DNA of 59,074 nt from an uncultured archaeon (lineage in GTDB: Archaea > Aenigmatarchaeota > Aenigmatarchaeia > CG10238-14). The notes beneath the pieces were generated by a model that searched no databases, was not told the DNA's origin, and saw only the letters and a list, made by a program, of their open reading frames with translations. Made by a program: the position numbers and the translations under genes. Shown one piece after another: positions 42,409-59,074 of the stretch (positions within the stretch are counted from its first letter, which is position 1; each line of letters starts with the position of its first letter). The DNA lies in the NCBI GenBank assembly GCA_964347415.1, contig CAYFYJ010000003.1:1-59074 (forward strand), in the 5' to 3' direction.

Positions 42409-44646
42409 TTGGTCTGTACTTTTGAAATGAAGAATGGATTGATGGTAGTCAATTGTGCTAACTGCCTATTTGGCTCAAGTTTAGAGGATTTTGATGTATG
42501 TTTTGCGAAGACTATAGACAAAATCGTTGAGGTAAAAAATGTTGAAAGGATAGTACTCTCTGGTATCAGGGAGTACGAATATGATTATAAACAGACAAAA
42601 TTGTTGATCGAGATTGCTGAAGTATATGACAAGCTCGTGAACAGAGAGGATGTTTTGAACTATTCCTCGTTCGGCAATCAGAAGTGTGATAAATGTTTTC
42701 CCAGAAGAATGTCTGCGGTAAAATTCATAGTCCAAGAGATGATTAGAAAAGATCCGATAGGCGCATACATAAAAACTGGTAGATTGATCAAATCTTACTC
42801 AAAAAAATCTGAGAAGGAAACACCTATGTGCCGTGCATGCACTAAATTCTACATTAACAAAGTTTTTCTGCCGATCAGAAATGCCCTTGAAAAAACAACC
42901 TTGATTCAATCGGTCAAGAACAAACTGTATAAACACAGACTGGGTGATAGGGCTTTGTACAGGATGGTTTTTCATCCCCTGATAAGACCTCAATTCATGT
43001 TGACCAGATACAGGCCAATACCGCCAAAAGGAGGTATACCGATCGAAAGGTATACTGTTGGTGGGATAACAGTGGAAATATTCAAAGTTCCTGAACAAGT
43101 AAGGTTTTATTATCACATCTCTCCACCAGAGTTCAAACTATCGGATGAAGAATATACTGTCATAGATGACGCGAGGCGATATCTTGCTGGGCATAGACCT
43201 ACTGAAAGGGAATTTTCTGAACCAGAGAAGACAAGAGAAGTTTTCATGAATATGGGTAAGAATGTTGTCAGAAGATTGGTAAGAGGTAGGGGTTTAAAAT
43301 TAACGGCGGATGAAATCGATGAAATGGCAAACATACTGGCGAGGTACACTGCTGGTTTTGGTATTCTGGAAGTGTTGTTAGCAGACAGTAAAATTCAAGA
43401 TATTTACGTTAATTCCCCGATTGGGACGATGCCGATTTTTATCGGACATGATGAGTTTGAAGAATGTGAAACCAACTTAATACCTACAAGAGAAGATGCA
43501 GAGGGTTGGGCAACTAGATTCAGGTTGTTGTCTGGTAGACCTTTGGATGAGGCTAATCCTGTATTGGATACAGAATTGTTCACTTCTAAAGGTAGGGCCA
43601 GGGTTTGTGCTATAACTAGAACTCTGTCACCTGAAGGAATGGGCTATGCTTTGAGGAGACACAGAGAAAGACCATGGACTTATCCTCTTTTCATGAACAT
43701 CAAATACTTTGATTCTTTGTTTGCTGGGTTGATGAGTTTCTTGATTGACGGTTCAAGAGCATTGTTGATAGCCGGAGGTAGGTCTTCCGGAAAAACTTCA
43801 TTGCTCGCAGCCACGATGCTCGAAATAATGAAGAAGTTTAGGATTGTAACCCAAGAAGACACATTAGAGTTACCAGTGGTACAACTGAGAAATTTGGGTT
43901 ATAATATAGAAAGGCTGAAGTCACGCTCAGTAATAACGAGAGTTGAAACTGAACTGCCTGCGGAAGAAGCTTTGAGGACCGCATTACGTTTAGGGGATAC
44001 ATGTTTAATCGTTGGTGAAGTTCGTTCTGTGGAAGCGAAGGCTCTGTATGAAGCTATGAGAATTGGTGCTTTAGCTAATGTTGTTGCTGGAACTATTCAT
44101 GGAGAATCTGCCTACGGTGTCTTCGACAGAGTTGTCAATGATCTGGGCGTTCCTGCTACCAGTTTCAAGGCGACAGATATTGTAGTGGTGTGTGGAATGC
44201 TAAGGTCAGCTGATGGGTTACGCAAGTTCAGAAGAGTTATTGAATTGACTGAGATCAAGAAGCATTGGAAAGAAGATCCCGTTGAAGAAGGAGGACTTGT
44301 AAACCTGATGGAATACTCTGCTAAAGAGGATAAGCTGAAACCAACTAGTACTCTGCTAAACGGAGAATCATACATAATAAATGAGATTGCCAAGAGGGTG
44401 AAAGAATGGCATGGTAACTGGGATGCTGTCTGGAGCAACATTGAATTGAGGGGAAGGGTGAAACAAACGATCGTTGATTATGCAAATAAATTAAAAAGAC
44501 CAGAAATATTAGAAGCTGAAACATCGTCGAAAAGCAATGAGATGTTTCACTTGATAGCAGATGAAGTTAGAAGGGAGGTCGGTGCTTTAGATTCAAAGAT
44601 GATATATGATAAATGGGTGGAATGGTTTAAGGAGGAACTGAAGTAA
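42409..44646 (+). CDS. Type II/IV secretion-family ATPase (archaeal type IV pilus assembly ATPase, FlaI/PilB/TadA-like) with extended Cys-containing N-terminus
   Basis: Walker A AGGRSSGKTSLLAATM, Asp box IVTQEDTLEL, Walker B CLIVGEVR and His box VAGTIHGES. The N-terminal region of about 200 aa carries CANC, CDKC and CRAC pairs. The true start is probably ATG 42427. Confidence 0.85.
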   Translation: MVCTFEMKNGLMVVNCANCLFGSSLEDFDVCFAKTIDKIVEVKNVERIVLSGIREYEYDYKQTKLLIEIAEVYDKLVNREDVLNYSSFGNQKCDKCFPRRMSAVKFIVQEMIRKDPIGAYIKTGRLIKSYSKKSEKETPMCRACTKFYINKVFLPIRNALEKTTLIQSVKNKLYKHRLGDRALYRMVFHPLIRPQFMLTRYRPIPPKGGIPIERYTVGGITVEIFKVPEQVRFYYHISPPEFKLSDEEYTVIDDARRYLAGHRPTEREFSEPEKTREVFMNMGKNVVRRLVRGRGLKLTADEIDEMANILARYTAGFGILEVLLADSKIQDIYVNSPIGTMPIFIGHDEFEECETNLIPTREDAEGWATRFRLLSGRPLDEANPVLDTELFTSKGRARVCAITRTLSPEGMGYALRRHRERPWTYPLFMNIKYFDSLFAGLMSFLIDGSRALLIAGGRSSGKTSLLAATMLEIMKKFRIVTQEDTLELPVVQLRNLGYNIERLKSRSVITRVETELPAEEALRTALRLGDTCLIVGEVRSVEAKALYEAMRIGALANVVAGTIHGESAYGVFDRVVNDLGVPATSFKATDIVVVCGMLRSADGLRKFRRVIELTEIKKHWKEDPVEEGGLVNLMEYSAKEDKLKPTSTLLNGESYIINEIAKRVKEWHGNWDAVWSNIELRGRVKQTIVDYANKLKRPEILEAETSSKSNEMFHLIADEVRREVGALDSKMIYDKWVEWFKEELK

Positions 44647-45539
44647 TGCAAAGCCATATTATGAGATGGGTTGTTCCAATAATTGCAGGGTTGATAGTAG
44701 TTGGTATATTCCTTTTTTGGGTAATGGGTCAGATGCAGGATTTACCTATAACCCATATGGATACCAGTGAAGAGAATAGGTTCATAAGATACATATCTTG
44801 CGCTGTGGCTATGTGCGGTGGATTGCATCAGACTGAGAGCAATGATATATGTCTGAGTGCAGATGTGATGAGCCAACCTCTAGAATACGACGGTCAAGAT
44901 GTCGTAAAAGGATGCAGAGAGCTTTGTGAAGAGATAAGAGATAATCGTAGCCTCCCAGTACAGGATCGTTATTGTGGTGATAGTGTTAAATTTGATTTTA
45001 CTTTTCAGGAACCTGTCATATATACTGCCAACCGCAGTACAGGAAGCAACGACCTCAGAAGAGTTCATAAATGGAAAGGGGTTTTTATCCAAAGAGGAAG
45101 ATGTTTTGATTATTGCGGTAGGAGAGCAGGCGGGTATATGGGTGGTGACGAAGGTTGGCTTCATGATTACGAAGTTATCTATGATAATCCTGACCAGGAT
45201 ATGTGTCTTGACCCAAGCATTAGTGATTTTGGTATTTATCTAGGATGTAATGGTTATGCTGATTCTGGTTCTATATGGATAAAACATGATACCGACCCGA
45301 CTTTTGTTACTAATAATTGCGATATATCAGGATACGTTGATTATGAAGACAGAACGGGGATACCTATTATCGATGAATGTACGATCCCAGCTGGGATACA
45401 AGTTGAAATTTGGACTGAAAATATACAAGATGGGCTTTTTGCGTGTTTATATGTTTTTGATATTTGTCTTATCCCTAGCTGTGATAGACCATGGGGAACT
45501 TATTATGCTTGTCCTCAAGTTGTAGTCTCAGTGATTTAA
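44646..45539 (+). CDS. N-terminally anchored cysteine-rich protein sharing a pilin-like N-module with the 1120-aa protein
   Basis: ATG overlaps the ATPase stop (TAATG). After the TM helix, RFIRYISCAVAMCGG...NDICL...GCRELCEEI...RYCGDSVKFDFTFQ parallels KLIRYYACSLAICTKGC...DRICL...CDVECKSIC...ACGRNYPIELSLQ of the 48039 protein. Confidence 0.55.
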   Translation: MQSHIMRWVVPIIAGLIVVGIFLFWVMGQMQDLPITHMDTSEENRFIRYISCAVAMCGGLHQTESNDICLSADVMSQPLEYDGQDVVKGCRELCEEIRDNRSLPVQDRYCGDSVKFDFTFQEPVIYTANRSTGSNDLRRVHKWKGVFIQRGRCFDYCGRRAGGYMGGDEGWLHDYEVIYDNPDQDMCLDPSISDFGIYLGCNGYADSGSIWIKHDTDPTFVTNNCDISGYVDYEDRTGIPIIDECTIPAGIQVEIWTENIQDGLFACLYVFDICLIPSCDRPWGTYYACPQVVVSVI

Positions 45540-45572
45540 TCTCATTTTATCTTATATTAAAATAAATTATAA

Positions 45573-47531
45573 ATGATGCCAACTGAAAAGTTTAAGGCCA
45601 AATTGGAAAGACGAGCGAGTAATTGGTATGAAGCTGTATGTAACTATTTTGGTAAATTCTATGAATTCCCTGCAAAGGGTGAAAGAGCAAGAGAACTGTC
45701 AGAAAAATTAGATTTTTGTGATATAGAAACCAAACCTGGTTACATCTTTACTACCACTATAGTGGTTGCGATAATGGGAATTGTTCTATCTCTAATACTT
45801 TTTTTGCTCAATTTGCAAACATACGGTCTATTCGCTATATTCTCTTTCTTGGGCTTAGCCTATTATCTAATAATCTATCCAACGATACTGACCAAGTATT
45901 ACAGGATTCGAGCGACATCTGATCTAGTTCAAGCCGCTTTCTATCTTGTGATATCCTTGAGGCTCGTTCCGAATTTAGAGAGAGCCTTGATGTTTGCCTC
46001 TTCTAACGTAAAGGGTGTTGTCGGGAGAAGTCTGAGAAAGATGGCATGGGGTATAACAGTAGGTAAATATGGTAGTGCGGATGAAGTGTTGAATGAATTT
46101 GCGAGAAAATGGAAACAAGAGAACCTGGAGTTCTATGAAGCTGTGAATTTGATAAGAGCATCTATCGCTCAAAAGAAAGAGAGGAGAGAGGTAATGTTAG
46201 ATGAGGCTATCAACATATTGTTACAAGGAAACTTGGAGAGGATGAAACATTATTCTACTCAACTCAGAAATCCTCTGATGATAATAACCACTATAGGTAT
46301 CACCCTTCCAGTTTTGACGATAATACTCTTCCCGATAATGACCATATTCTTGGCAGACGCAGTTGAACCTGCCTTCTTGTTTTTTTTCTATGATCTAGTC
46401 CTGCCACTCGTTGTTTGGTATGTGATGAACGAGACTTTGAAAACAAGACCTGTTACATTTGGGATCATCGATATATCAAAACATCCTCAAGCTAGACCAA
46501 TGAAAAAAATCGTATTCAACATTTTTGGAAAGGGTGTATCGATATCGACAGTAATCATCTCCATACTATTCGGGTCAGTATTCACCATGCTCGGATATTA
46601 TTTTACAACATTGCCGAGTGATCCAGTCTCGTTAACAAAACTTATGGGTGGGTTGTTGATGTTGTATGGTTTTGGGTTTGCAATCATCTTTTATTCTTTC
46701 TTCAACTTCTATAAAAACATCGATATCCGAGATGATATTAGAAAGATGGAAGAGGAATTCGCTGAAGTTTTGTTCCAACTTGGTTATACGTTGTCTAGTG
46801 GTGTACCAATAGAGGCAGCTCTGGAGAAGTCTTACGAAAAAACAAAGGATTTGAACGTTTCCAGTCTTTTTAGGATGGTTTTAAACAACATAAAGAAATT
46901 TGGTTTTACGTTTAAAAAGGCTTTGTTTGATAAAAAATATGGTGCGATGAAACATTATCCTTCTCCCATGATCTATTCGACGATGGATATGATTTCGGAC
47001 TACATCGGCAAGAGTGTTATTGGTGTTTCAAAAGCCATACTATCCATTTCGAACTACCTTAAGGGTATGCATTCTGTTGAAGAACATATGAAAGAAATTC
47101 TGGATGAGACCACTTCGAGCATGAAGATGATGATGAACTTACTAGTCCCTATTGCATCAGGAGCTGTAGTCGGCATGGCAACGATAATGATAATGGTCCT
47201 ATTCCAGATCGTTAACATCTTAGCAAACGTCACTGGTTTATCTGGAGCATATCCTGATCAGTTAGGACCGGATGTTTTAGGAACCATCGTTGACATAAAG
47301 AACATAATGCCCGCGGAAATATTTTTGGTTGTTGTTGGTATATACATGATTGAGATAACAGTTATGCTCGCCAGCTTCATAGATTCTTTGCAGTATGGGG
47401 ATGATCCTCTAGACAGACATTATCTCATAAGTACAAATCTTGTTATAGCCCTGTGTATTTTCAGTTTTGCAATCCTGCTAATTTATTTTATATTCAAGGG
47501 GCTAATAGGTTTTATATGGATGGAACCATGA
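45573..47531 (+). CDS. FlaJ/TadC/PilC-like polytopic platform protein (two T2SSF-like cytoplasmic domains)
   Basis: 652 aa with about 9 TM helices. Two helical soluble segments (LERALMFASSNVKGVVGRSLRKMAWGITVGKYGSADEVLNEFARKW and GVPIEAALEKSYEKTKDLNVSSLFRMVLNNIKKFGFTFKKAL) resemble T2SSF repeats. Adjacent to the ATPase. Confidence 0.7.
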   Translation: MMPTEKFKAKLERRASNWYEAVCNYFGKFYEFPAKGERARELSEKLDFCDIETKPGYIFTTTIVVAIMGIVLSLILFLLNLQTYGLFAIFSFLGLAYYLIIYPTILTKYYRIRATSDLVQAAFYLVISLRLVPNLERALMFASSNVKGVVGRSLRKMAWGITVGKYGSADEVLNEFARKWKQENLEFYEAVNLIRASIAQKKERREVMLDEAINILLQGNLERMKHYSTQLRNPLMIITTIGITLPVLTIILFPIMTIFLADAVEPAFLFFFYDLVLPLVVWYVMNETLKTRPVTFGIIDISKHPQARPMKKIVFNIFGKGVSISTVIISILFGSVFTMLGYYFTTLPSDPVSLTKLMGGLLMLYGFGFAIIFYSFFNFYKNIDIRDDIRKMEEEFAEVLFQLGYTLSSGVPIEAALEKSYEKTKDLNVSSLFRMVLNNIKKFGFTFKKALFDKKYGAMKHYPSPMIYSTMDMISDYIGKSVIGVSKAILSISNYLKGMHSVEEHMKEILDETTSSMKMMMNLLVPIASGAVVGMATIMIMVLFQIVNILANVTGLSGAYPDQLGPDVLGTIVDIKNIMPAEIFLVVVGIYMIEITVMLASFIDSLQYGDDPLDRHYLISTNLVIALCIFSFAILLIYFIFKGLIGFIWMEP

Positions 47532-47689
47532 GTAAGGGAGATGTCAGAGCCGCTATAAGTTGGAAGGTCATACTCATATTGACGATAGGTTTTATAGGAA
47601 TTGTAATTCTATTATTAATCAGTGAAGGTGGGTTGATTAGCAAAATAGTTGATGCCATAAAACCGATAATAATAACGATACCGTGGTGA
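47528..47689 (+). CDS. Small N-terminally anchored protein (pilin-like candidate)
   Basis: ATGA overlap with the platform gene stop. Sequence MSKGDVRAAISWKVILILTIGFIGIVILLLISEGG... Confidence 0.4.
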   Translation: MSKGDVRAAISWKVILILTIGFIGIVILLLISEGGLISKIVDAIKPIIITIPW

Positions 47690-47898
47690 GAATGAAAGGA
47701 ATGACAGGACATCAGATGGCGATAATAATGTCGATAATAATCGCGATAATCGTCATAGCATTGGTATGGATATTTCTCACCAAAGGTTCTGAAGGTATTG
47801 GAGACATGTTCGACAAGATAATTGAATCCTTCTACGGAGCATTGTGTCAAATACTCGGCACTTGGGGAGGTTTATTCTTACCTGGGATGTGTGGATAA
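47683..47898 (+). CDS. Small N-terminally anchored protein (pilin-like candidate)
   Basis: MKGMTGHQMAIIMSIIIAIIVIALVWIFL has a short charged leader followed by a hydrophobic helix. The likely start is ATG 47692. Confidence 0.4.
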   Translation: MVRMKGMTGHQMAIIMSIIIAIIVIALVWIFLTKGSEGIGDMFDKIIESFYGALCQILGTWGGLFLPGMCG

Positions 47899-47899
47899 G

Positions 47900-48037
47900 A
47901 TGGTTACGATAAAATTCATAATAGAGATTCTTCTGCTAGTGATAACTCTAGCTGTGGTCTTATACTGGGTTTACATGAATTATGGGAATGTTGTAGACGC
48001 ATTCATGAACTGGATAAGAGAAATGCTGAGTTGGTAG
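47900..48037 (+). CDS. Very small N-terminally anchored protein (45 aa)
   Basis: ATG lies 1 nt after the preceding stop. Sequence MVTIKFIIEILLLVITLAVVLYWVY... Confidence 0.3.
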   Translation: MVTIKFIIEILLLVITLAVVLYWVYMNYGNVVDAFMNWIREMLSW

Positions 48038-48038
48038 C

Positions 48039-51000
48039 ATGAAGATAAGTATAAAGTGGGTCGTATGGCTCATATTTCTAGGTATAGTTGCTGCTGGTAT
48101 GCTTACCTTGTTTGTTTTTGGTCTGCCTTGGATTGAGAACACGATTCTGTATCCTGAAAGAACCAAGTTGATCAGGTATTATGCATGCAGTCTGGCTATC
48201 TGCACTAAGGGCTGTGACGGCACCGACCCAGATAATATAGTTGACAGAATTTGTTTGGAAAATTACACAGATACAGAGACATGTGATGTAGAGTGTAAGA
48301 GCATTTGTCAAAATTGGGGATCGCCTGGACCAGATACAGCTTGTGGGAGAAATTATCCTATAGAACTTTCTTTACAAGGTAAAGGGCCTTTGGGTGGAGT
48401 TATTATGAAGGGCGTATACAGAGTTTGGTATAAAAGTCTTATTCAGGGCTGTGTGTTTTGCAGTGATGCTGCTGATATAATTGATTTTATGAAATACGGT
48501 CGGGTTGCCCCTTGTCGACCAGAAGGATATAAATATATTGAGGTCCCACAAGGGCTAATGAACATTATTGGATTTCCACTCAGTATCACGGGTTCATTCG
48601 CCGAAACATCATCGGCAGGTAGATATCCTGATTTTCCAGAACCTGATGAACTTTTAGGATCTGGATGTGGTACCGGACTTTTCGGTGGTATAGTTGATGC
48701 TTCTAGGAATGATATCGGTGAAGGGGCAATATTGTTGGACCAAGGCGTAGCAAGAGAAGCCTTTGGATGTTTTCCACAATCACCATACGATGATATATTT
48801 GCCTCGAGTCTTTGTAATGTTGGTGATACATATTATCAATGTGATTTTAAGGGCCGTTTGTACCTTTGGGGAACAAAAACAACTAGCGGATGTGCTGATG
48901 TAACCATCAATTCAACACCTCCTGAACCTGGCGAGTTTTGGGTAGAAGTAGAGCCTGTTTCTCCGCCTGATAGGATAGTAGGAAAAAAGGTTATGGTTAC
49001 ATTGGATGAAGAGGCTATATACACTGTAACTATACACAACTCCCTTGGGACGGGTGCTGATTTCACACTCGAGTTTGGTCTTGCAGACGAAATTTCTTCT
49101 TATGGACCCAATCCTGTTTGTCAATTCAGCTCAACTTCTGAAACCGTATTCAGTGGGGAAACGAGAATAGTAGAGTTGAGGTGTTTAGCTTCCAGTGATC
49201 CTTCTGAGCTCAGTGATGATGATAGGGAAGACCTGGTGTCGGGAGAGAAATGGATTGATGTGATGGTATCAACACCTGCATATGGAAGTAGAAATGATCA
49301 AGCACTGCTTGAAGTTGTTGACTTGAGATTAGATGTATGGGTTAGTGGTAACAAACCGATTGAAACTATCACAAAAGATATAGGCGTGGATGCTGAATAC
49401 ACTGTTGAGATTCGTAATAACTTCAACACTCAAGAGGACTTTGATCTGTCTTATATACCTAATGACCCAAGCGTGACCTGTGATTTTGATCTTAATCCGT
49501 TGACAGTAAATCCTCAAACATTTGATACGACAACGATGAGGTGCCGTTCACCCAATCTAGGCAGCTATACGATAGAAGTAAAAGCTTCACATGCTGACAC
49601 AGACCTTGAAAAATATGATGATGTATATTTGACCGTGAGTGGTTGCAGTGGCGACTTGATAATGAATGGGCCGTACGATGTGGAATCAGGAGGTGATGTA
49701 GATGTCTACGTCACTGGATTCACTGGTTGCCAGGGTAGAACCATATACTTGTCTGTCATTGATCTAGACTTAGTAGTCGATACATGCTTGGTGGATGTTC
49801 TTGGAAGTGGGGATGAATGTACATTTTTGACTCACGTGGCCAACACTCCTGGATATTATCGAATGTATGTCAAGATGGATATGGATCCACCCATCGGTAC
49901 TAGGATAAATAGTACAACTCTTACAATCAGTGTTGATCCTCCTCAGGCAGGAGGTGTTTATACATATCCATGGCCAAATGATCTTGCATGTGACTTTAGT
50001 TTTGGGGGCGATTGCAGTATACTTACAGATGGTCCAGATATATGTGATAAATGTGGGAATTGTGTGGGAGAATTATTCGGATATTATGAAGGCGAATGGA
50101 GATTCCCATTTGGTGTTCCGGTTTGTGGAATGAATCCACCTGCGTATGCTTGTACGGACTATGGTGACCCACAATCTAATTCAGATAGAAGGGCTTACAA
50201 TGCTTCTGCCTCTAATCTATGTTGTGTGAGTGGTCAAGATTATTATTCTCCTGGTCCTTCTGATGCGCCATGTTTATCTCCAGATGACAACACCCATCAC
50301 GACAAAACGGATGTTTTTTCTTACATGGGTCCTGATACCTATGGTGACTTTGGACGTGTATTAAACCCAAGAAACATCTTGGTGATGGACGAAAGATATG
50401 CTGAATTCAGACCGTATGCCTTACCTGGGTGTGTGTCCGATCTTGATTGTGACGGTTTTCTGAGGTGGGGTGTCAGACCAGACCTATTGGATGGAGTGGC
50501 AAAATGTGATGTTCCTCCTGCTAGTGGTTATTGCTATCTGACAGATGTTCCTCTCAACTATTATGGTATCTGGTTGTTTTTCAGAATCAGCCCTGATTAC
50601 AGACCAGTTTATGGTCTACAAATAAGATACAAGGGATGTGGTGGGGATGGGGACTGGGTTGGTTTAAATATATTCATGCATGATTCAAACGGTTGGTTTT
50701 TAGCGCATCAACAAGGGACTTCTGATGACGATAGTTTAACAACCTTTAACGTAAGACCGAGTGAGTGGGCATGGAACAATGTAGATGCTGTAATGTTAGC
50801 AATCGATAGATTCAGTCAAAGACAGTGTATTGACATAGATTATGTTGGCCTTTTAAGCCCAGGTAATGTTCCTTATTGTACGTATGGTACTGGTGATTAC
50901 AACAGAGTAGTCGACAATGGTAAAAAATGTTATTGGGATTTGGATTGTCCTCCTGCTGGTAGTGGTTGGACTACTAGTAAACCAGTGAGTTCTGGAGTTG

Positions 51001-51401: not shown

Positions 51402-51404
51402 TGA

Positions 51405-51587
51405 TTGGGTGATCGATTGGATAAAAAAACCTTTCTTGCAATAATTTTCACGGTTATCTTCTTAGCCATTATTTTACTGGTCATCATATTCTTGGTGGGT
51501 GGATCGACTCCTTACGTTGATACATTCTTTGATAAGTTGGACCAAACAGTGTCCAATTGGTTCAACACAAGTTTTGGTTATTCATAG
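51405..51587 (+). CDS. Small N-terminally anchored protein
   Basis: MGDRLDKKTFLAIIFTVIFLAIILLVIIFLVGG... Confidence 0.35.
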   Translation: MGDRLDKKTFLAIIFTVIFLAIILLVIIFLVGGSTPYVDTFFDKLDQTVSNWFNTSFGYS

Positions 51588-51625
51588 AAAATTCATATTC
51601 TATCTTATACTAAATATTATCATGA
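51586..51625 (+). repeat. 40-bp exact direct repeat, copy 1 (promoter/5' region plus ATGA of a Cys-rich pilin gene)
   Basis: AGAAAATTCATATTCTATCTTATACTAAATATTATCATGA is identical to 51955..51994. An A/T-rich BRE/TATA-like element lies at about -33 to -23 from the ATG. Confidence 0.85.
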
Positions 51626-51942
51626 TCGGTAGGGTGGGAACTGGTTTCGTAGTAGCTGTGGTTGTTGGTATAGTCCTACTGACAATATTTATTTTTTTAG
51701 CATACAAGGCCTCAAAAACAGAATCCTGGGACTGTGTAAAATGTAAGACCGAATTTACGACATGGTGTTCGATGTGTTTTACTGTTAACGCAGGTAAGGA
51801 TGATTGGAGTTTGGGGGGTAATTTAGGTGAAGACTTGGCCAAATGTCTTAATGACTGTGGTTATTGGCCTGGAACCGCTACAGGTGATGATTGTACAAAC
51901 GCAGAAACTGCATGTGAACCCTTTATACTCTTTACTGAATAA
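51622..51942 (+). CDS. Cysteine-rich type IV pilin-like protein (paralog a)
   Basis: MIGRVGTGFVVAVVVGIVLLTIFIFLAY, then WDCVKCKTEFTTWCSMC...KCLNDCGYWPG...DDC...AC (8 Cys). The ATG inside the 40-bp repeat is preferred over the longer track ORF. Confidence 0.6.
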   Translation: MIGRVGTGFVVAVVVGIVLLTIFIFLAYKASKTESWDCVKCKTEFTTWCSMCFTVNAGKDDWSLGGNLGEDLAKCLNDCGYWPGTATGDDCTNAETACEPFILFTE

Positions 51943-51954
51943 TTCACACTTAAC

Positions 51955-51994
51955 AGAAAATTCATATTCTATCTTATACTAAATATTATCATGA
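51955..51994 (+). repeat. 40-bp exact direct repeat, copy 2
   Basis: Identical to 51586..51625 and ends in the ATG of the 51991 gene. Confidence 0.85.
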
Positions 51995-52305
51995 GAAAGG
52001 GTTTGGCAATACCTTATATCATAGCTTTAGTCCTGGCAATAATAATCCTGGCTATTGGCGGGTATCTCATGTACAGGGCCTTTACAGAAGGCAAATTGAG
52101 CTGTCAAGAATGCAAGGCCCAGTTCACTACATGGTGTTCGATGTGTTATTTGGGGAACCCTCCTTGGAGTGCTGATTATGAATTGGGTGAAGACTTGTCT
52201 GAGTGTGTTGGTAGCTGTGGATATTGGTCAGGAACTGATGAAGACACGAAATGTACAGATACTGAAGCACCCGATGCATGCAGTGGAATGGGTGTTCCCT
52301 TTTAA
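51991..52305 (+). CDS. Cysteine-rich type IV pilin-like protein (paralog b)
   Basis: MRKGLAIPYIIALVLAIIILAIGGYLMY is a class III-like signal (KG then a hydrophobic stretch). Followed by SCQECKAQFTTWCSMC...ECVGSCGYWSG...KC...AC (8 Cys). Confidence 0.65.
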   Translation: MRKGLAIPYIIALVLAIIILAIGGYLMYRAFTEGKLSCQECKAQFTTWCSMCYLGNPPWSADYELGEDLSECVGSCGYWSGTDEDTKCTDTEAPDACSGMGVPF

Positions 52306-52328
52306 ATTACCCCTTGCAATATATAATC

Positions 52329-53711
52329 ATGGTTGGTAGTGACTCAGTTACCATATTAATTCTGCTAGTATTTTTAGTCATCGCATTATTCTTCGGGATA
52401 TATCCGGTTTTTTCAAACGTTGCAAAGAATAAGTGTATAATTCAACAACATACTCTGTTGAACGGTTTCAGTAAAACAATAGAATTGGTTAAGGAAAGGG
52501 ATTCACCAGTTGAGAACAAGAGTTTTATGGTCATGAGTTGTACCGATTGTATTTGGTATGATTCCTTGAATTCACAGTGGAAAATAAAATATAAAGATGA
52601 GTCAGAGATAAACAAGAGTATTTCTTATAACGTGGTAGGGGTTGCGGCCAATTGTGTTAGTTGTAATGAGCCTGAAAATTGTGCTAACATGGTGAAAGAT
52701 ACTACGTATAATTTTGAAGTTGGTGAGGACTATGTTAGATGTACGAATTGTCCTGATAGTCCAAATTTGTGTGGTTATTCTGTTTTATTTAGTCCACGAG
52801 TTGAAGTGGCTGATGATCTTTATGACCCGGTGGACGAGGCAGAACCAATAGCATTAGTATCTTATAGAGATATTCTGTATTTGTTCTACCATAAAGAGGG
52901 TACGGATGATATATACTATAGGACCTCTAGCGATGGAAAGAGTTGGGGTCCTGAAAATCTATTAACGGATGGTACACGCACCTATGGTTTTCCTTCTGCA
53001 GTCGTTTTTGAAGATGAACTATACGTAGGATATTCGGGCCTCAACGGGGGTTGGGAAATATTCGTAAAGAAGTTTGATGGTACGTGGTCTGACGTTGGAG
53101 TTTTAACAAGTACTAATGTGGGGCAAGATGGTGGGTCATATTTTGCTGTTTATGACGGTGAATTATACTTATTCTATCACCATGAAGATCACCATATAAA
53201 ATATATGACATGTGGATCTAATTGTGGTGCCCCAGGCAGTTGGGGAGCTGAACAAGAAGCAGTTCCTTCAGGAACGCATGTTTATCCTTCTGCCATAGAA
53301 TATGATGGAAAATTACATTTAAGCTACTCAAAACAAATAGGGTTATGCATCCCTGATCCAGGAATTTTTTGGAACTGTAGGTGGAGTATATATTACAGAA
53401 ATTTTGATGGCTCTTCTTGGTCCGCAGAAGAAGAAATAGCAGTCAATGAGAACAATAACGGGAATCCTCATCTAATTGTTTATGATGAAAAACTTTACGT
53501 ATTCTATCACGGGGTCGAGGGCAGTTCTCTTGCTACTGGTACTGGTAAAGTTCTTTATAAAGCATATGATGGTGGTTGGCAAAAAGAATGTGGAGCTGCT
53601 GGTGGTAAAGGCGCAACTTTTGCAGCAATTCCGGCACCTACATGGCATTTGCATAAATTCAATCTCTGTTTTACACAATATGATGGTGATTGGAAAATCA
53701 TGTGTCAGTAA
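52329..53711 (+). CDS. N-terminally anchored protein: pilin-like module fused to a beta-propeller-like repeat domain
   Basis: MVGSDSVTILILLVFLVIALFFGIY. N-module SCTDCIWYDSLNSQWKIKYK. The C-terminal half repeats YRDILYLFYH, FEDELYVGY, YDGELYLFYH, YDGKLHLSY and YDEKLYVFYH at intervals of about 50 aa. Confidence 0.6.
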   Translation: MVGSDSVTILILLVFLVIALFFGIYPVFSNVAKNKCIIQQHTLLNGFSKTIELVKERDSPVENKSFMVMSCTDCIWYDSLNSQWKIKYKDESEINKSISYNVVGVAANCVSCNEPENCANMVKDTTYNFEVGEDYVRCTNCPDSPNLCGYSVLFSPRVEVADDLYDPVDEAEPIALVSYRDILYLFYHKEGTDDIYYRTSSDGKSWGPENLLTDGTRTYGFPSAVVFEDELYVGYSGLNGGWEIFVKKFDGTWSDVGVLTSTNVGQDGGSYFAVYDGELYLFYHHEDHHIKYMTCGSNCGAPGSWGAEQEAVPSGTHVYPSAIEYDGKLHLSYSKQIGLCIPDPGIFWNCRWSIYYRNFDGSSWSAEEEIAVNENNNGNPHLIVYDEKLYVFYHGVEGSSLATGTGKVLYKAYDGGWQKECGAAGGKGATFAAIPAPTWHLHKFNLCFTQYDGDWKIMCQ

Positions 53712-53742
53712 TTTTTAAACTGAAAAAACATAATTATTTTTT

Positions 53743-54177
53743 ATGATCGCGACTATTTCTGTCAAGTATATGCTGATGTTGATATTAATCACAATCATAA
53801 TAATCGGTCTCGCCCCAATAGTCACTTGGCTCTCAGACCGATTTCGAACACAGATATGTGTTCAACGACAAGTTAAAGCTATAAATGACATAAACGATGT
53901 GGTCAAGGAAGTTCTTAAAACCGGGCACCCAAAGGTTGAAAAGATTAAACTGGATGGTGTATGTACTGAATGTATGTGGTATAATGACACCGCAGGCAAC
54001 CAACACGTAGAGATAAAGTTCAAGTATACTGCTACACCTTACCCCGTAAACGTTAGCATACCTTGGAATGGTGTGAGTAATGTCTATGGGTGTGGATCGA
54101 GTAACATGGTGACGGGGGTTACGTATACTTTGTACATAACGGCGAACGATCTTACTTGCACTGATTGTACAACATGA
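53743..54177 (+). CDS. N-terminally anchored pilin-like protein sharing the N-module of the preceding gene
   Basis: TM helix, then VCTECMWYNDTAGNQHVEIKFKY and a terminal LTCTDCTT. This parallels SCTDCIWYDSLNSQWKIKYK and VRCTNCPDS in the 52329 protein. Confidence 0.5.
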   Translation: MIATISVKYMLMLILITIIIIGLAPIVTWLSDRFRTQICVQRQVKAINDINDVVKEVLKTGHPKVEKIKLDGVCTECMWYNDTAGNQHVEIKFKYTATPYPVNVSIPWNGVSNVYGCGSSNMVTGVTYTLYITANDLTCTDCTT

Positions 54178-54209
54178 AGTTAATTTTAAGTAAAAACAAA
54201 TAATAATTT

Positions 54210-54677
54210 ATGGCAGAGCGCACAACGAGCAACACCATAATTATAATTTTCACCACTATAGTAGTGCTTGCTGCTGTAATCATCTTGATACAGGATGCGG
54301 AAGCAAACCTAATGTTCTGGACTATAAGACCCTCTGAATCCACTGCTCTGGATATAATAAGTAAATACACTGCCTTGGGTGGTACGACAGGTGAAGTTAC
54401 GACAGACTACAGGAACATCACATCAAACATAAATTATAACGTCTACAGCAGTGGAAAAATGGTCTGTGTGATTTCAAGAAAAGTGGAGACAGGGGCAACC
54501 GCATTGAAAACTATCAATTGTTATTCTACTCCTTTTGAAATTATAGATAAGTTAAAGACTCCTGCTCCTCCTCCTGATTATGAACAAGACTTTCATATAT
54601 GTTTTGTAAAATATGACGATTTCAGTTCAACTCTGTTGGTGGACAGCTGGTGGATATTACCAGTGGGGGTGTGCTGA
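54210..54677 (+). CDS. N-terminally anchored hypothetical protein (pilin-like candidate)
   Basis: MAERTTSNTIIIIFTTIVVLAAVIILIQ... Confidence 0.4.
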   Translation: MAERTTSNTIIIIFTTIVVLAAVIILIQDAEANLMFWTIRPSESTALDIISKYTALGGTTGEVTTDYRNITSNINYNVYSSGKMVCVISRKVETGATALKTINCYSTPFEIIDKLKTPAPPPDYEQDFHICFVKYDDFSSTLLVDSWWILPVGVC

Positions 54678-55516
54678 TGGAGTTAAGTCTGACAACAATA
54701 TTTTTCCTTGTAGTAGCATTTGCTGTTGGTGCAGCAATTTTGTTATTCATGATAGGACAATGGTTAGATCTGACTGGAATAAGGTACAAGATGGAATCGC
54801 ATAGGAATGCATTAAACCTTCTACAATTAATGGTTTCGAACAGTCCTCTAGTAGAGAGAGATATGTATGGGAGACCTAATAAACTCATACTGGAAGAAAC
54901 GGCGCTAGATGCTTATGAAAATCCTGGTTATGATATGTACGATATAAACAATTTAGATGATGAATTGCACAAATGCTGTCAATTCCTGGATTTTGATTAT
55001 ACAATAACTGTTGGAGATAACGTGACTGGTCGCAGATGGAACATCGCGGACCTCCCATTCAAGGAAGACTCTGAATGTTACCCGGACAGATTCATTGGCT
55101 ATGCAGATATGCCTGTAGTCATACACAATACTTCTGGTTTCTACAATCCTGGTTTCATAGAGATAACACTGGTTAAAACAACTCTGTCAGATTTAAGCTT
55201 CTGGCTTTCTCATTCTTTTATCAGAACTGATCCTGATTGGCCCGAGTCCATGGCCTATTTTGTGGGAGAATATGAAAAGAAAGTTGAAGTCATGGTTCCG
55301 ATTGATCCAGAAATAATTCAGGTTGTTGTGAATAAAACAGGTGTAAACCCAGAAACTGTTTGTATGGAATTTTCTAGTGGAAGAATAGCATGTAAGAGAT
55401 TCGTAACGAGCGATGCCACACTGGACTCAGATCCAACAACATTAAACATCGTGGGTAAGTGTTATGAAGCATGGATTGTCACGGATATAGAATTCCAGGA
55501 GGTTGCGGTGAGTTGA
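54677..55516 (+). CDS. N-terminally anchored hypothetical protein (pilin-like candidate)
   Basis: ATG overlaps the preceding TGA (TGATG). Sequence MELSLTTIFFLVVAFAVGAAILLFMIGQW... Confidence 0.45.
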   Translation: MELSLTTIFFLVVAFAVGAAILLFMIGQWLDLTGIRYKMESHRNALNLLQLMVSNSPLVERDMYGRPNKLILEETALDAYENPGYDMYDINNLDDELHKCCQFLDFDYTITVGDNVTGRRWNIADLPFKEDSECYPDRFIGYADMPVVIHNTSGFYNPGFIEITLVKTTLSDLSFWLSHSFIRTDPDWPESMAYFVGEYEKKVEVMVPIDPEIIQVVVNKTGVNPETVCMEFSSGRIACKRFVTSDATLDSDPTTLNIVGKCYEAWIVTDIEFQEVAVS

Positions 55517-56136
55517 TGATAAGAACAGGGCGAAAGGGTGGAATATTTGTGAGTATGATAATACTCTTAGTCATATACCTTTTTGCAGTCGCTATAGTTC
55601 TAGTTTTTTTCTACTTCTTCAAGTTTCACGTAACTACTACTGTCTTGGATGAGTACAGATGGAACAAAATTCAGGAGGTTCCTTTAGATCTGCTTTCTAT
55701 GGATATCGATGGGAAATCTTTTGTCCCTAAGATGAATAAAGTTTATTATAAGTTTGAACCAGAAGACGAATTCAAAAAAGTCAGAAATATAGTTAATAAT
55801 CAACTCTATTTCATGTTTGGTGGCGACGCAAAAAGCATGGGATATATTATTTCAATTGGAAATGCAACTGTGAGTCAGTCGCAATACCCAAATTGTGGGT
55901 GTATGCCCCACCCATTAGTTGAAAATCTTTATACGTGTAATGATGACTGCTCTGTGTCAAAAAAAGGCAACTATTGTGGGAAATATGTTTTTCCTGTGGG
56001 AATAGTGCCAGATCCAAGCCTATGTTTTGTGATAGGACGCAGAGAATATTCAGCATCTTATCCCTTTCCCTTAACTTTCAACGGGACGGATGAATTCACC
56101 GCTAGATTATCTTATGATGCTGTGGAGTATGTGTGA
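55516..56136 (+). CDS. N-terminally anchored hypothetical protein with class III-like signal
   Basis: ATG overlaps the preceding TGA. Sequence MIRTGRKGGIFVSMIILLVIYLFAVAIVLVFF... Confidence 0.45.
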   Translation: MIRTGRKGGIFVSMIILLVIYLFAVAIVLVFFYFFKFHVTTTVLDEYRWNKIQEVPLDLLSMDIDGKSFVPKMNKVYYKFEPEDEFKKVRNIVNNQLYFMFGGDAKSMGYIISIGNATVSQSQYPNCGCMPHPLVENLYTCNDDCSVSKKGNYCGKYVFPVGIVPDPSLCFVIGRREYSASYPFPLTFNGTDEFTARLSYDAVEYV

Positions 56137-58478
56137 TAAAGATGAAAAAAGGTATTGGTCCAGTCATTTTAATTATAATCATACCAATAGTTCTAATCGT
56201 TGAAGGTGTGGTGGTTAGCACCGTTTTCAAGAAAGAAAGATTAGAACTCAGGCAGTTGCTAGAGGCGTCTTTGATATCCAAATCAGACAAGGTTGAAACT
56301 TACGTCAGGTCATTCATGGGTGCTACAGACCTCTCATCTGTTCAGGGTTTGGACGCTTTCGGCACAAGTCAGATAGTCCTTCCTTATGATTTCGATTCAA
56401 CTTATCATCGCACTTACAATATGTCTTATTGGCAAATTTACGACACAAAATTGATACCGCCCAGAGAGGTTTTACTTAACAAGACTAGACAAAAAACTGC
56501 TTGGGTTTCAAGTTGCTATCTCGAGAATTACATGAAAAGTTATGATTCATTCTCTGAGGAAGTAAGGATGAGTGGGGCCCCTAGACTCACTGTTGGTTAC
56601 ATAACTGATAGTACAATCCTTGTGAAACTCTCAGATAACGTGGGTGACCTCGAGGCTACTCTTTCAGGAGAGTTTGGGTGGGAGGGAGAGACAAGTGAAA
56701 TAGATATAAAAAGACATTTCAGGCCTTATTCTTTGATGTATACAGAATTTGGAAAGATTGTAGAAACAGCTGAAAATATTATATATGATGATACACTCGG
56801 AAAATTGATAAGGAATGAAACGCCGGGTTATTACCACGATATGAGCAGTCAGGCTATGGCTCAAGATGAACTGGATAAATTGGCCAATGATCTGTTAGAT
56901 TCTAATATGAGAGTGATACTAAAGATACCAGACGCAAATTATAATTATGCGGCTGGATCGGCCGCAGCTATAATCAACGTTACGATTTATGATAGTTCTA
57001 TGAATTATACTCTTTATGATTTTCCAACAGATAGAGTAACGGTTAAATATCTTGGTGTGAATTTCCTGGTTAAAGTGGGAGATACAGGTTTAATCAGTAA
57101 TGCGGACGAGGAAGAGGCCCAAAATCTACCTGAATTCAGATCTTGTGCTTCAGACCTAGGAATAATAAGTCCTAAGAGCAATATCTGTGATTTCTTCAAT
57201 GGGTCCGATGATGTCTGTAACCCAAAGACTTGTAATGATCCTGATTCTCTCAGCCCAAATAAATACTCGATAGAGGGCACGTGTGAAGATTTTACTGGCG
57301 AGTATACAGACCTATGTTTTGATTCGGATGCTGATGGTATTACTGAGAGTCTCTACGAGTATGACTGCTATTCAACTTCTGAAATCTGTTATTACATAGA
57401 GTATAGATGTGGATCAGACAATTGTACGGATGGAGGCTGTATAATTGCATGTACTTCTGATCCAGATTGTGATGATGGTAAGATTTGTACTGGAGTTGAA
57501 GCCTTTAATGGTATAGACAAATGTATGAATCCAGGCGATGATGATGCGTATTGTGAAAATCCTCCTTTACCGGATACCTATATCCCCCCAAACACAGACG
57601 GTATTTGGGGTACGGAGGATGATTGTGACAGAATGACGAGGACTTGTCCGATTGCAGGGGATTGCACACAAAATTGTCAGGGTGTTGGAGATACTTGGAT
57701 GTGCGATGGTCCTCCGGATACAGAATGTATTAATCCTTGTGATGGATTTGGAAATTGTGATGTTTGCACACCTCCAGCATGTGCTCAAGAGGACTGTGGA
57801 TGTAACGACGATACCTATTGTGTAGCTAAGTTTGGTCCAGGATATAAATGTAAGTTGAGCACTCATCAATGTACATTGGATGAATGTGATAGTGTCTTTG
57901 ACTGTACTGATCCAAAGACTGATTGTCAGTATTGGACCTGTGATCGTCCACTGGATCCAGATTCAGAGTGTATACTGAACAATCATCCTGATACTTATAT
58001 TCCTCCTGGCAATACTTGCGGAGAAGATGAAAGGTCATGTCCTGGCGAATGTAAAGATATCAAATTTGAATACAGGGACCCTGTAGGTGCTACTGTGAAA
58101 TGTGCGAGAGAGTGTGATGGAAGTGGTGGTTGTAAACCTTCATGCACACCACCTGATTGTTCCTACACTTCTATTGAGGAATGTCTGTATGGATGTAAAA
58201 ATACTATTAATTGTTGGCAGGGATATTATTGTCCTGCAAAAACGTGTGGTGACACGTGTTGTTTAGCATGCATTGGAACAAGTTGTACGACATGGTCAGG
58301 ATGTTTAAGGGAGGATATGGCGGGACCACAGACCTGTACATGGACAGATAAATGGGATGATTTAGGGTGTCTTATATTTGGTTGCGGTCCAGGAGAATGG
58401 TGTGAGTGGCCATGTTGTGTGACAGATAGAACATGTACTGAGACTTGTAGTTATAGTGACATGTGTACTTATGCATGA
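56133..58478 (+). CDS. Large (about 780 aa) class III-signal protein with hyper-cysteine-rich C-terminal half
   Basis: MKKGIGPVILIIIIPIVLIVEG (ATG 56142 likely). The last roughly 440 aa contain about 63 Cys by hand count. An internal duplicated module is marked by PDTYIPPNT...CP..C...CDGFGNCDVCTPPAC and PDTYIPPGNT...CPGEC...CDGSGGCKPSCTPPDC. Confidence 0.65.
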   Translation: MIKMKKGIGPVILIIIIPIVLIVEGVVVSTVFKKERLELRQLLEASLISKSDKVETYVRSFMGATDLSSVQGLDAFGTSQIVLPYDFDSTYHRTYNMSYWQIYDTKLIPPREVLLNKTRQKTAWVSSCYLENYMKSYDSFSEEVRMSGAPRLTVGYITDSTILVKLSDNVGDLEATLSGEFGWEGETSEIDIKRHFRPYSLMYTEFGKIVETAENIIYDDTLGKLIRNETPGYYHDMSSQAMAQDELDKLANDLLDSNMRVILKIPDANYNYAAGSAAAIINVTIYDSSMNYTLYDFPTDRVTVKYLGVNFLVKVGDTGLISNADEEEAQNLPEFRSCASDLGIISPKSNICDFFNGSDDVCNPKTCNDPDSLSPNKYSIEGTCEDFTGEYTDLCFDSDADGITESLYEYDCYSTSEICYYIEYRCGSDNCTDGGCIIACTSDPDCDDGKICTGVEAFNGIDKCMNPGDDDAYCENPPLPDTYIPPNTDGIWGTEDDCDRMTRTCPIAGDCTQNCQGVGDTWMCDGPPDTECINPCDGFGNCDVCTPPACAQEDCGCNDDTYCVAKFGPGYKCKLSTHQCTLDECDSVFDCTDPKTDCQYWTCDRPLDPDSECILNNHPDTYIPPGNTCGEDERSCPGECKDIKFEYRDPVGATVKCARECDGSGGCKPSCTPPDCSYTSIEECLYGCKNTINCWQGYYCPAKTCGDTCCLACIGTSCTTWSGCLREDMAGPQTCTWTDKWDDLGCLIFGCGPGEWCEWPCCVTDRTCTETCSYSDMCTYA

Positions 58479-58537
58479 TCATCTCAAATGTTTGAATTAG
58501 TTATTGTGTTTTTAGGCAGGCCAAATTAATAACAAAT

Positions 58538-58552
58538 TATTTATTTAAGGAA
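58538..58552 (+). promoter_or_regulatory. Putative TATA element TATTTATTTAAGGAA, 30 nt upstream of the pilin ATG
   Basis: The same 15-mer occurs at the same distance (30 nt) upstream of the paralogous gene, at 58902..58916. Confidence 0.4.
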
Positions 58553-58567
58553 GTGTAAATTATTTTC

Positions 58568-58894
58568 ATGAGTAAAGGAATAGCCATCAACACGATTCTG
58601 TATTTGCTTTTAGGGGTACTAGTGGTTGGGATAGTGGTTTACTTGGTTTACACTTATGCGACTGGTTCAGGTATGGACATACAGGACTGTAGAACAAGAG
58701 TTCAAAACTGGTGTAATGGCTGTCAGATAGCTGGCTGGCCCGCTGGTTTTGGAAGCAAGGCGGTTGATAGTGATATAGGAACGTGTATCAGTGATTTTTT
58801 TGCCACAGGTACTATCAACCCTCTAGGTATAGACTGTAACCAAACGTACAGTACTCCCGGTGATACTAAAGACTTCTGTGGACAATTAACCTAA
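58568..58894 (+). CDS. Cysteine-containing type IV pilin-like protein (paralog c)
   Basis: MSKGIAINTILYLLLGVLVVGIVVYLVY is a class III-like signal. Followed by DCRTRVQNWCNGC and three further Cys. Confidence 0.65.
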   Translation: MSKGIAINTILYLLLGVLVVGIVVYLVYTYATGSGMDIQDCRTRVQNWCNGCQIAGWPAGFGSKAVDSDIGTCISDFFATGTINPLGIDCNQTYSTPGDTKDFCGQLT

Positions 58895-58901
58895 TGAAAA
58901 A

Positions 58902-58916
58902 TATTTATTTAAGGAA
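58902..58916 (+). promoter_or_regulatory. Putative TATA element, second copy
   Basis: TATTTATTTAAGGAA lies 30 nt upstream of ATG 58932. Confidence 0.4.
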
Positions 58917-58931
58917 AAGGAAAGTATTGGT

Positions 58932-59074
58932 ATGAGCAAAGGAATAGCTATTCAAACGATTCTGTATTTATTGATAGGGGTACTAGTGGTTGGGATAGTG
59001 GTTTACTTGGTTTACAGTTATGTAATGAATCCAATGTTACCCGAGACACAGTGTAGGACATTAGCAACCGCATG
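58932..59074 (+). CDS. Type IV pilin-like protein (paralog d), 3' end cut by window edge
   Basis: MSKGIAIQTILYLLIGVLVVGIVVYLVYSYVMNPMLPETQCRTLATA... A 42-bp stretch (58975..59016) is identical to 58611..58652 in paralog c. Confidence 0.6.
   Translation, partial: MSKGIAIQTILYLLIGVLVVGIVVYLVYSYVMNPMLPETQCRTLATA

Follow-up and report, generated by a model that had tools for sequence, protein, structure and literature searches.

What would an uncultured archaeon assemble from 18 consecutive genes, 16 of which encode products with a single hydrophobic segment at the N-terminus? The question is raised by a 59,074-nt stretch of DNA from the Aenigmatarchaeota (contig CAYFYJ010000003.1 of assembly GCA_964347415.1; the whole stretch is hereafter called the window), in which open reading frame (ORF) calls confirm a run of 18 genes, all on the + strand, that starts at 42409 and reaches the window edge (g01 to g18), divergent from five genes on the - strand (u1 to u5). 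A sequence-only reading of the window had described the 18 genes as a type IV pilus-like locus, and the core of that reading is supported: with a probability of roughly 0.8, the genes give this DPANN archaeon a type IV filament (TFF) assembly system that is type IV pilus-like. The assignment is supported by an ATPase, a platform protein, an enrichment of class III-type leaders and the structural model of one pilin module, and the system would most likely serve as an adhesive or host-contact fibre.

The motor end of the locus agrees with the secretion-superfamily ATPase and FlaJ/TadC-like platform proposed earlier: g01 encodes a secretion ATPase of the hexameric type, and g03 a polytopic platform. 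Specifically, g01 matches Pfam T2SSE (PF00437) above its cut-off (E = 4.4e-14) and carries a Walker A motif (GGRSSGKTS, residues 456-464), a Walker B motif (LIVGEVR, 533-539) and a His box (GTIHGES, 561-567). The closest solved structures are Archaeoglobus fulgidus GspE (2OAP, 2e-25), then CpaF (~1e-15) and then FlaI (~1e-13), all of which align only from about residue 285 onward; the N-terminal ~285 aa have no match and hold two four-cysteine clusters (C3/16/19/31 and C93/96/141/144) that are absent from several relatives. The platform protein g03 has seven hydrophobic segments in a simple hydropathy scan and gives a marginal match to T2SSF (PF00482), a family that two of four g03 orthologues match at 1e-5. 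For comparison we used related loci (designated L plus a number, such as L002), among them three contigs reached via ATPase homologues and 24 GTDB-representative loci reached via platform alignment; where the plan is conserved, the platform gene always follows or adjoins the ATPase gene, with a g02-like gene between the two in closer relatives.

The other 16 products are united by their N-termini. A hydropathy scan finds a single N-terminal hydrophobic segment in 16/16, compared with 4/46 among the rest of the window genes that reach 100 aa (Fisher p = 1.8e-11), and cysteine makes up 5.04% of their residues as against 1.09% in the other window genes. Furthermore, in related loci, [KR][GA] stands right before the helix in 80 of the 128 N-terminal-helix ORFs that lie downstream of the platform (67 with Gly), whereas the same motif occurs in 5 of 43 upstream control ORFs, one of the five being itself a g10-family gene. 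Most motif-bearing leaders start M-x(0-6)-K-G. The motif is also present in the L002 orthologues of g11, g12 and g14 (MKKG in the g12 homologue, SKG in that of g14), and in L004 and L020 the products encoded in the position of g07 begin MSKG. The putative class III motif is thereby strongly enriched across orthologous loci, in keeping with the earlier remark that several products follow the archaeal class III pattern. This motif, scored as a sequence pattern, is the basis on which we infer leader cleavage. Small and modular pilin-like subunits describe the 16 products better than the word "cargo", which had been applied to them and which we drop.

The best candidate for the bulk subunit of such a filament is the family of ~105-aa paralogues formed by g09, g10, g17 and g18: it has several copies and upstream regions of its own, is conserved and carries a canonical leader. 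A word-indexed homologue search with g10 returned three proteins only, and an exhaustive profile search was used instead; the latter recovered 269 representative clusters at E <= 1e-3, a number that falls to 88 at E <= 1e-10, nearly all of ~100 aa and matched over their full length. Aligned over 91 members, the family keeps Lys3 and six cysteines at 90% conservation or more, with a consensus of MxKGIAI, a hydrophobic stretch and then C...WCxxC...C...C...C; [KR][GA] falls within the first few residues of 81 of the 91 members, followed by IAI, VAI or VAV. Searched against Pfam, none of the 91 members matched a pilin family or any other family. An extra g10-family gene with an MKKG leader was also observed between u2 and u1 in a related contig (L002:9156-9509, +).

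Type IV pilins have a textbook layout in which a long helix is packed on a beta-sheet. The AlphaFold2 (AF2) model of g11, built from an 11-sequence alignment of homologues (predicted local distance difference test score, pLDDT, 81.5), has a continuous helix over residues 4-57 (54 residues), strands over 61-138 and a beta-propeller over ~158-460. Because the model combines a long helix with a beta-sheet, the N-terminus of g11 is read as a pilin module, and g12 is read likewise by paralogy. In Foldseek, the propeller retrieves Kelch, GH43, sialidase and lectin propellers at a probability of 1.0, and Pfam BNR and DUF6242 are matched below threshold; the beta-propeller fusion anticipated from the letters is thus borne out by both model and structural search. 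As modelled, g11 would be a pilin-like protein of modular build that carries a probable binding domain; g12 would be the pilin module alone.

The genes are tightly packed, and all four junction strings quoted in support of coupled or near-abutting genes are exact (TAATG at 44644-44648, ATGA at 47528-47531, TGATG at 54675-54679 and at 55514-55518); the remaining junctions are mostly -4 to +5 nt. An AT-rich gap of 23-89 nt lies before each of g03, g09, g10, g11, g12, g13, g17 and g18. A 34-nt element upstream of g09 is identical to one upstream of g10, and the sequence TTTATTTAAGGAA is common to the upstream regions of g17 and g18; this is consistent with small genes having been duplicated in tandem along with the upstream region that each possesses. 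The last gene, g18, is open at the window edge and complete on contig JABAOF010004698.1 (GCA_012974965.1), where the strand switches immediately past it. Inside the locus, scans detected neither tRNAs nor Rfam families, nor any tandem repeats that were meaningful, and a bacterial-type promoter/terminator scan gave counts at shuffle level, which is uninformative for an archaeon. Just past the window end (L001:10730-13493, -) lie two genes convergent with the locus end, d1 (572 aa, with hydrophobic segments, a large external domain and, at the N-terminus, a zinc ribbon) and d2 (323 aa, lipoprotein-like); d1/d2-like architectures are found at the end of the cluster or beside it in L009, L020 and L021.

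Comparison of gene neighbourhoods in related metagenome-assembled genomes (MAGs) shows the same plan in more than 20 Aenigmatarchaeota loci, as well as in one locus labelled Woesearchaeota (L024, ATPase 47% identical). Homologues of the ATPase that are 56-90% identical are named Aenigmarchaeota or Aenigmatarchaeota wherever they are named, with one exception that bears the older label "Micrarchaeota RBG_16_49_10". The conserved order starts with the ATPase, a g02-like gene (in closer relatives), the platform, one to three tiny single-helix proteins and a large Cys-rich protein, and it ends with two to four ~100-aa proteins, several proteins of 130-300 aa and often a giant Cys-rich protein. Across L002 to L004, identity is 63-72% for the ATPase and 33-62% for the platform, compared with 20-45% or undetectable similarity for the pilin-like products, the usual pattern of a slow machine and fast substrates.

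Variants of the two machine genes were observed along the way. Several orthologous ATPases are ~1250 aa long, with inserted intein and LAGLIDADG domains (PF14890, PF14528; L006:5393-9145, P0041, P0058, P0060 and others), and the ATPase orthologue at L023:7508-9750 occupies two separate ORFs of 472 and 272 aa, the result either of a frameshift or pseudogenisation or of an assembly error. L026, L027 and L028 (match at ~9870-12064) encode a platform-like protein of ~730 aa that is 23-24% identical over the full alignment; this gene is solitary in a conserved housekeeping context, with no ATPase or pilin-like gene adjoining, and the MAGs are labelled Nanoarchaeota, Woesearchaeota and Methanosarcinales.

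The pilus system is not confined to the genes from 42409 onward, where its start had been placed, but reaches upstream to 39483 on the - strand through u1 to u5, all five of which are conserved in related loci. A metagenome scan seeded with u2 rather than with the ATPase gave 80 loci, and the following counts use those with enough flank. The ATPase gene is divergent from u2 in 49/49 loci with at least 1.2 kb upstream, u1 lies between the two in 47 of these 49, and u3-u5-like genes occur on the other side of u2 in 33 of the 43 metagenomic loci with room for them. The two cytoplasmic members are fused into a single 397-aa ORF in one Aenigmatarchaeota MAG (L013:706-1899, -), which supports u1 and u2 acting together, and L024 keeps u1 and three u5-like genes beside its ATPase. 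We infer from this arrangement that u1 and u2 are accessory parts of the motor, and u3 to u5 are possible parts as well. The linkage owes something to shared descent, because the loci probably come from one phylum or its neighbours. Both u1 and u2 gave non-specific coiled-coil matches only (for u2, in Pfam and the PDB); a relationship to FlaC or DUF7310 was considered and rejected, the matches being weak and common to dozens of unrelated coiled-coil families. The membrane proteins u3 to u5 were likewise considered as the missing prepilin peptidase; their family alignment has no conserved Asp, and they are therefore not an A24 peptidase. Sequence identity between u4 and its L002 to L004 orthologues is 43-57%.

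A related observation comes from elsewhere in the window (4811-7897, -), where four tandem paralogues (v1 to v4, 229-250 aa) combine a signal peptide or N-terminal helix, about three more hydrophobic segments and a C-terminal coiled coil. They have a "FxPFLGxFxIxYGxL...RIF" core in common with u3 to u5 (BLAST E down to 3e-8), v4 matches Halogen_Hydrol below threshold, and it seems that an unannotated family of membrane proteins has expanded in this lineage.

How firmly, then, can the locus be called a type IV filament system? Several observations weigh against it. None of the 16 products reaches a Pfam or NCBIfam threshold and no pilin family is matched, which agrees with the earlier remark that this product set could not be matched to the described Aap, Ups, Epd or PilA systems; for the small products, no pilin model comes at or near threshold. 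A KG-type leader is found in 7/16 window products (g04 MSKG, g05 MKG, g10 MRKG, g15 GRKG, g16 MKKG, g17 and g18 MSKG); g02, g06, g07, g08, g12, g13 and g14 lack the motif, the leader of g09 ends GRVG, and the g11-like leader in close relatives is M[AT]VG-xEE, without a basic residue. The earlier claim of one long N-terminal helix in all 16 products stands, and the KG-type leader is confined to the seven named; motif-less products may be membrane-anchored or processed at non-canonical sites. The platform assignment of g03 is marginal at 25.3 bits against a T2SSF cut-off of 25.2, and a profile of the platform found no match among PDB sequences. The AF2 model of g10 (5-sequence alignment, pLDDT 77.6, 85-88 in the head) places a small all-helical head without beta-sheet after the N-terminal helix, and Foldseek finds no match for it in the PDB; as far as this shallow model goes, the g10 family does not have the canonical pilin fold, because its head is all-helical. 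Synteny within one phylum is compatible with descent rather than function. No Peptidase_A24 was found among the window ORFs scanned against Pfam, in line with the sequence-only reading, which had recognised no prepilin peptidase (seven housekeeping ORFs were scanned against NCBIfam only, and several small ORFs and u5 were outside the scan), and a crude motif scan of the fetched loci found no polytopic GxGD ORF except an L020 u4-like protein with a single GxGD at its extreme C-terminus. The archaeal class III peptidase gene usually lies elsewhere in the genome (PMC4858521). What is seen of a TFF system is an ATPase (PF00437), an adjacent platform (PF00482, marginal) and class III-led substrates, and, as regards the pilin fold, a g11 model that fits beside a g10 model with a helical head.

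Under the type IV filament reading, prepilin-like proteins would be inserted into the membrane and would lose a leader of three to six residues, removed after Gly by a class III signal peptidase encoded elsewhere. The ATPase would then extract the subunits via the platform, stacking their N-terminal helices into a fibre. Its bulk would come from the tandem ~105-aa family (g09, g10, g17 and g18), whose genes have AT-rich upstream regions of their own, with the conserved mini-proteins g04 to g06 and the mid-size g12 to g15 as putative minor or priming pilins. Shown on the fibre, g07, g11 with its beta-propeller and g16 with its 64 cysteines may act as binding modules for attachment to surfaces or host cells. 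The cytoplasmic coiled-coil proteins u1 and u2 would be lineage-specific accessories of the motor, and perhaps the membrane proteins u3 to u5 would too. Filament formation, polymerisation, leader cleavage and any role in host attachment all belong to this part of the scheme, predicted by analogy.

The same genes could instead build a bindosome-like surface display, a "functionalised TFF" in which a short pseudopilus or membrane-proximal array holds g07, g11 and g16 for binding or nutrient scavenging. Several large, domain-rich proteins do have the same KG leader as the small ones; the Sulfolobus bindosome provides a precedent, and functionalised TFF machineries have been proposed to be widespread (10.64898/2026.04.22.720090). 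Furthermore, d1 is a zinc-ribbon membrane protein convergent at the locus end, and such proteins have been tied to bindosome loci (PMC4858521). We consider this arrangement unlikely, however, as g01 scores 40.5 bits against the BasE model (NF053672, cut-off 1000), no substrate-binding-protein or enzyme family was detected in any product, and the tandem ~105-aa genes, each with an upstream region of its own, suggest a subunit that is abundant and polymerises. Uptake is another function that would suit a genome-reduced symbiont, by way of a competence-type retractile pilus importing DNA or host material. Type IV pili (T4P) matter to the way of life of genome-reduced episymbionts and are reported to trigger episymbiotic association in their bacterial counterparts, the candidate phyla radiation (CPR; PMC9894109), and g01 has weak similarity to NCBIfam ComGA (33.8 bits) and to the PilT family. 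Yet these scores are far below the cut-offs, and neither a ComEC-like channel nor a DNA-binding protein nor a second (retraction) ATPase occurs in the locus or its flanks, which makes an uptake pilus very improbable.

One might also suppose that only the first few genes encode a pilus, the rest being ordinary signal-anchored, Cys-rich envelope proteins that happen to lie alongside. The 9/16 window products without a canonical class III motif are consistent with this, as are g13 to g16, which have few or no detectable homologues beyond close relatives, and the AT-rich gaps within the cluster, possibly internal promoters. We regard it as highly unlikely all the same: relatives carry KG leaders on their g11, g12 and g14 orthologues and g07 equivalents, the g11 and g12 modules model as pilin-like, and the same gene order recurs phylum-wide.

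Within the type IV filament reading, a more specific and at present tentative possibility, to which we give well under even odds, is that the locus represents a distinct, phylum-wide DPANN subtype of TFF, defined by an obligate u1-u5 module, a new major pilin with a disulfide-knotted helical head, and giant, diversifying modular pilins that serve as host-recognition adhesins; in such a subtype, u1 and u2 would probably dock on the unmatched N-terminal domain of the ATPase. Were this true, the locus would be the host-attachment organelle of the Aenigmatarchaeota. To our knowledge, no member of this phylum has been cultivated. Given its phylum-wide conservation and the high identity of its ATPases, the locus is an obvious candidate for the main surface appendage of the Aenigmatarchaeota and a concrete starting point for work on the cell surface of this uncultivated group. 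The targets it provides include the 269-cluster family of ~105-aa candidate major pilins with an MxKG leader, the modular beta-propeller and Cys-rich pilins, and the ATPase-linked coiled-coil pair.

Table. Genes of the type IV filament-like locus and of its divergent upstream module, with window coordinates.
Gene	Coordinates	Strand	Length (aa)	Description
u5	39483..40049	-	188	polytopic membrane protein, paralogue of u3/u4; orthologues in related loci
u4	40062..40637	-	191	polytopic membrane protein, paralogue of u3/u5; no Pfam family
u3	40642..41172	-	176	polytopic membrane protein, paralogue of u4/u5; no Pfam family
u2	41224..41859	-	211	cytoplasmic; N-terminal "GFSEPEIID..LRKEGFS..EID" domain, P/Q-rich linker, coiled coil ending "LPALIESVRSL"
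u1	41920..42327	-	135	coiled-coil protein, conserved C-terminal "NPIKSxFVTK"; beside the ATPase gene, divergent
g01	42409..44646	+	745	secretion-superfamily (GspE/VirB11-type) assembly ATPase; Pfam T2SSE, motifs
g02	44646..45539	+	297	N-terminally anchored, 16 Cys; no KG motif
g03	45573..47531	+	652	polytopic platform, TadC/FlaJ/PilC type; Pfam T2SSF (marginal), position after ATPase
g04	47528..47689	+	53	mini pilin-like, leader MSKG
g05	47692..47898	+	68	mini pilin-like, leader MKG-MTG
g06	47900..48037	+	45	single-helix, no KG motif; orthologues start MVATK or MVTTK
g07	48039..51401	+	1120	N-terminally anchored surface protein, 56 Cys
g08	51405..51587	+	60	single-helix protein
g09	51622..51942	+	106	g10-family pilin-like, leader MIGRVG; 43% identical to g10
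g10	51991..52305	+	104	candidate major pilin, leader MRKG-LAI, hydrophobic helix, 8-Cys helical head (model)
g11	52329..53711	+	460	modular pilin-like, predicted pilin-type module and C-terminal beta-propeller
g12	53743..54177	+	144	paralogue of g11 pilin module; 25% identical over 150 aa to g11 N-terminus
g13	54210..54677	+	155	N-terminally anchored; 42% identical to L002 orthologue
g14	54677..55516	+	279	N-terminally anchored; kept in ~8 related loci
g15	55516..56136	+	206	leader MIRTGRKG-G; lineage-specific
g16	56142..58478	+	778	leader MKKG-IGP, 64 Cys
g17	58568..58894	+	108	g10-family pilin-like, leader MSKG-IAI, own AT-rich upstream region
g18	58933..59074	+	104 on JABAOF010004698.1	tandem paralogue of g17 (45% identical), cut by window edge

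Among the products listed, g02 is paralogous to the N-terminal domain of g07 and was detected in closer relatives only (L002, L005 and L006). Positional equivalents of g04 in related loci often start MKG or MNSKG, and g05 is the most widely detected small product, being 30-46% identical in L002 to L004 with an orthologue leader of M(R/S)KG-(V/I)TG. The large g07 is 29% identical to its 969-aa L002 orthologue and has a weak dockerin-like Ca-loop at its C-terminus; possible Ig-like segments were noted by eye only. In g16, 63/64 cysteines fall within the C-terminal 445 residues, and the motif "PDTYIPP" was seen twice by eye; giant, Cys-rich, KG-led proteins akin to it stand at the locus end in L009 (1139 aa, 90 Cys), L018 and L020. 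When g07, g11 and g16 were each compared with themselves by BLAST, no internal repeats emerged at E < 0.01.

Elsewhere in the window, the nearby genes belong to archaeal housekeeping (GatD/E, ArgRS, SMC and CTP synthase). The sole Rfam match in the window is an archaeal signal recognition particle (SRP) RNA at 33915-34189 (+, 124.8 bits), and the tRNA count across the 59 kb is 0. An energy-converting [NiFe]-hydrogenase/complex-I-like module at 12320-16944, consisting of antiporter-like, 20-kDa, 49-kDa/NiFe large and NuoH-like subunits and a HycI maturation protease, is notable for a genome-reduced DPANN archaeon. At 8679-12284, an SMC homologue of 832 aa matches its ~1165-position model in three stretches, so its coiled-coil arms may be shortened, and is followed by a PCC-domain protein and ScpA. 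A secreted 776-aa protein of the GH5 cellulase family (19532-22856, -) adjoins a protein that combines an ArsR/TrmB-type helix-turn-helix with an S-layer outer domain.

Where does the locus stand among known systems? The archaellum draws on the ATPase and platform superfamilies seen in our locus and likewise has class III-led subunits. The FlaI model (NF058587), however, scores g01 at 117.9 bits against a cut-off of 550, and neither archaellin nor ArlF/G/H/X nor ArlC/D/E families were found by Pfam or NCBIfam in the 18 products or u1 to u4, the FlaC_arch match of u1 being weak and driven by its coiled coil; that no archaellum accessory genes are visible, as first reported, still holds. The Sulfolobus bindosome (Bas) similarly combines class III-led surface proteins with a dedicated ATPase and platform, whereas no substrate-binding proteins were detected in our locus. 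For Tad pili, g01 reaches 112.8 bits against the TadA model (TIGR03819, cut-off 373) and no Flp family is matched. With these curated models far below their cut-offs, we rejected membership in the archaellum, the bindosome and Tad alike. In bacteria, the modular pilins of Streptococcus sanguinis and the PilY1 tip adhesins join a pilin module or filament to a large binding domain, a beta-propeller in the case of PilY1. The plan of g11 is similar, with no sequence similarity, and its predicted propeller has a generic Kelch/GH43/sialidase/lectin fold.

A close likeness is to archaeal T4P such as the Sulfolobales Aap and Ups, Methanococcus Epd and Haloferax PilA/PilB-C, in the classification of Makarova, Koonin and Albers (2016, PMC4858521). 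These have an ATPase and a TadC-like platform in one operon, and several pilin-like genes whose products carry a short, positively charged leader that ends in Gly or Ala ahead of a hydrophobic helix; small pilins are duplicated in tandem, pilins evolve fast, and the peptidase is encoded elsewhere. Our locus differs in its unusually many (16) pilin-like genes, none matching at a Pfam or NCBIfam threshold, in the small, helical six-Cys head predicted for the g10 family in place of a beta-sheet head, in the unmatched ~285-aa N-terminus of its ATPase and in the lineage-specific u1-u5. Nonetheless, Cys-rich components and large signal-peptide "adhesin or minor pilin" proteins are known from archaeal T4P loci, and almost all components of the Thermoproteales systems are Cys-rich (PMC4858521). 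Subclade 4F in particular has a variable Cys-rich N-terminal ATPase domain and an intracellular coiled-coil partner, arCOG07564, and its ATPase also turns up in nanoarchaea for which no pilins could be identified (PMC4858521). Compared by description, the 4F systems resemble our locus in the Cys clusters of the ATPase N-terminus and the coiled-coil neighbours; they are set apart by the weak DUF7310/FlaC matches of u1 and u2 and by the loss of the ATPase Cys clusters in several relatives.

DPANN "dark-matter" islands, in which an ATPase and TadC accompany unannotated signal-peptide proteins read as diverse pilins, follow the same logic and are the same kind of locus, described generically (Makarova, Wolf and Koonin 2019, PMC6393860, Fig. 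2A); phylum-wide conservation, the g10 family, models of modular pilins and the u1-u2 linkage are absent from that text. A 2026 preprint that classifies archaeal TFF systems stresses subsystem-specific N-terminal ATPase domains and notes PilY-like and Ig-like adhesins, the PilY-like ones in archaeal subsystem 4A/4B, and leaves the Aenigmatarchaeota unmentioned (Sivabalasarma and Albers, bioRxiv 10.64898/2026.04.22.720090); to a classification that lacks this phylum, the present locus adds a documented DPANN case. The novelty first claimed for it stands in that the product families are unmatched and we found no description of this particular locus in the literature; it was overstated in so far as Cys-rich pilins, adhesins, ATPase domains and coiled-coil partners (PMC4858521) and DPANN islands (PMC6393860) were already known. 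Because like loci have been described in both of these studies, the kind of machine is a known one, and the locus is a lineage-specific variant of it with peculiarities of its own.

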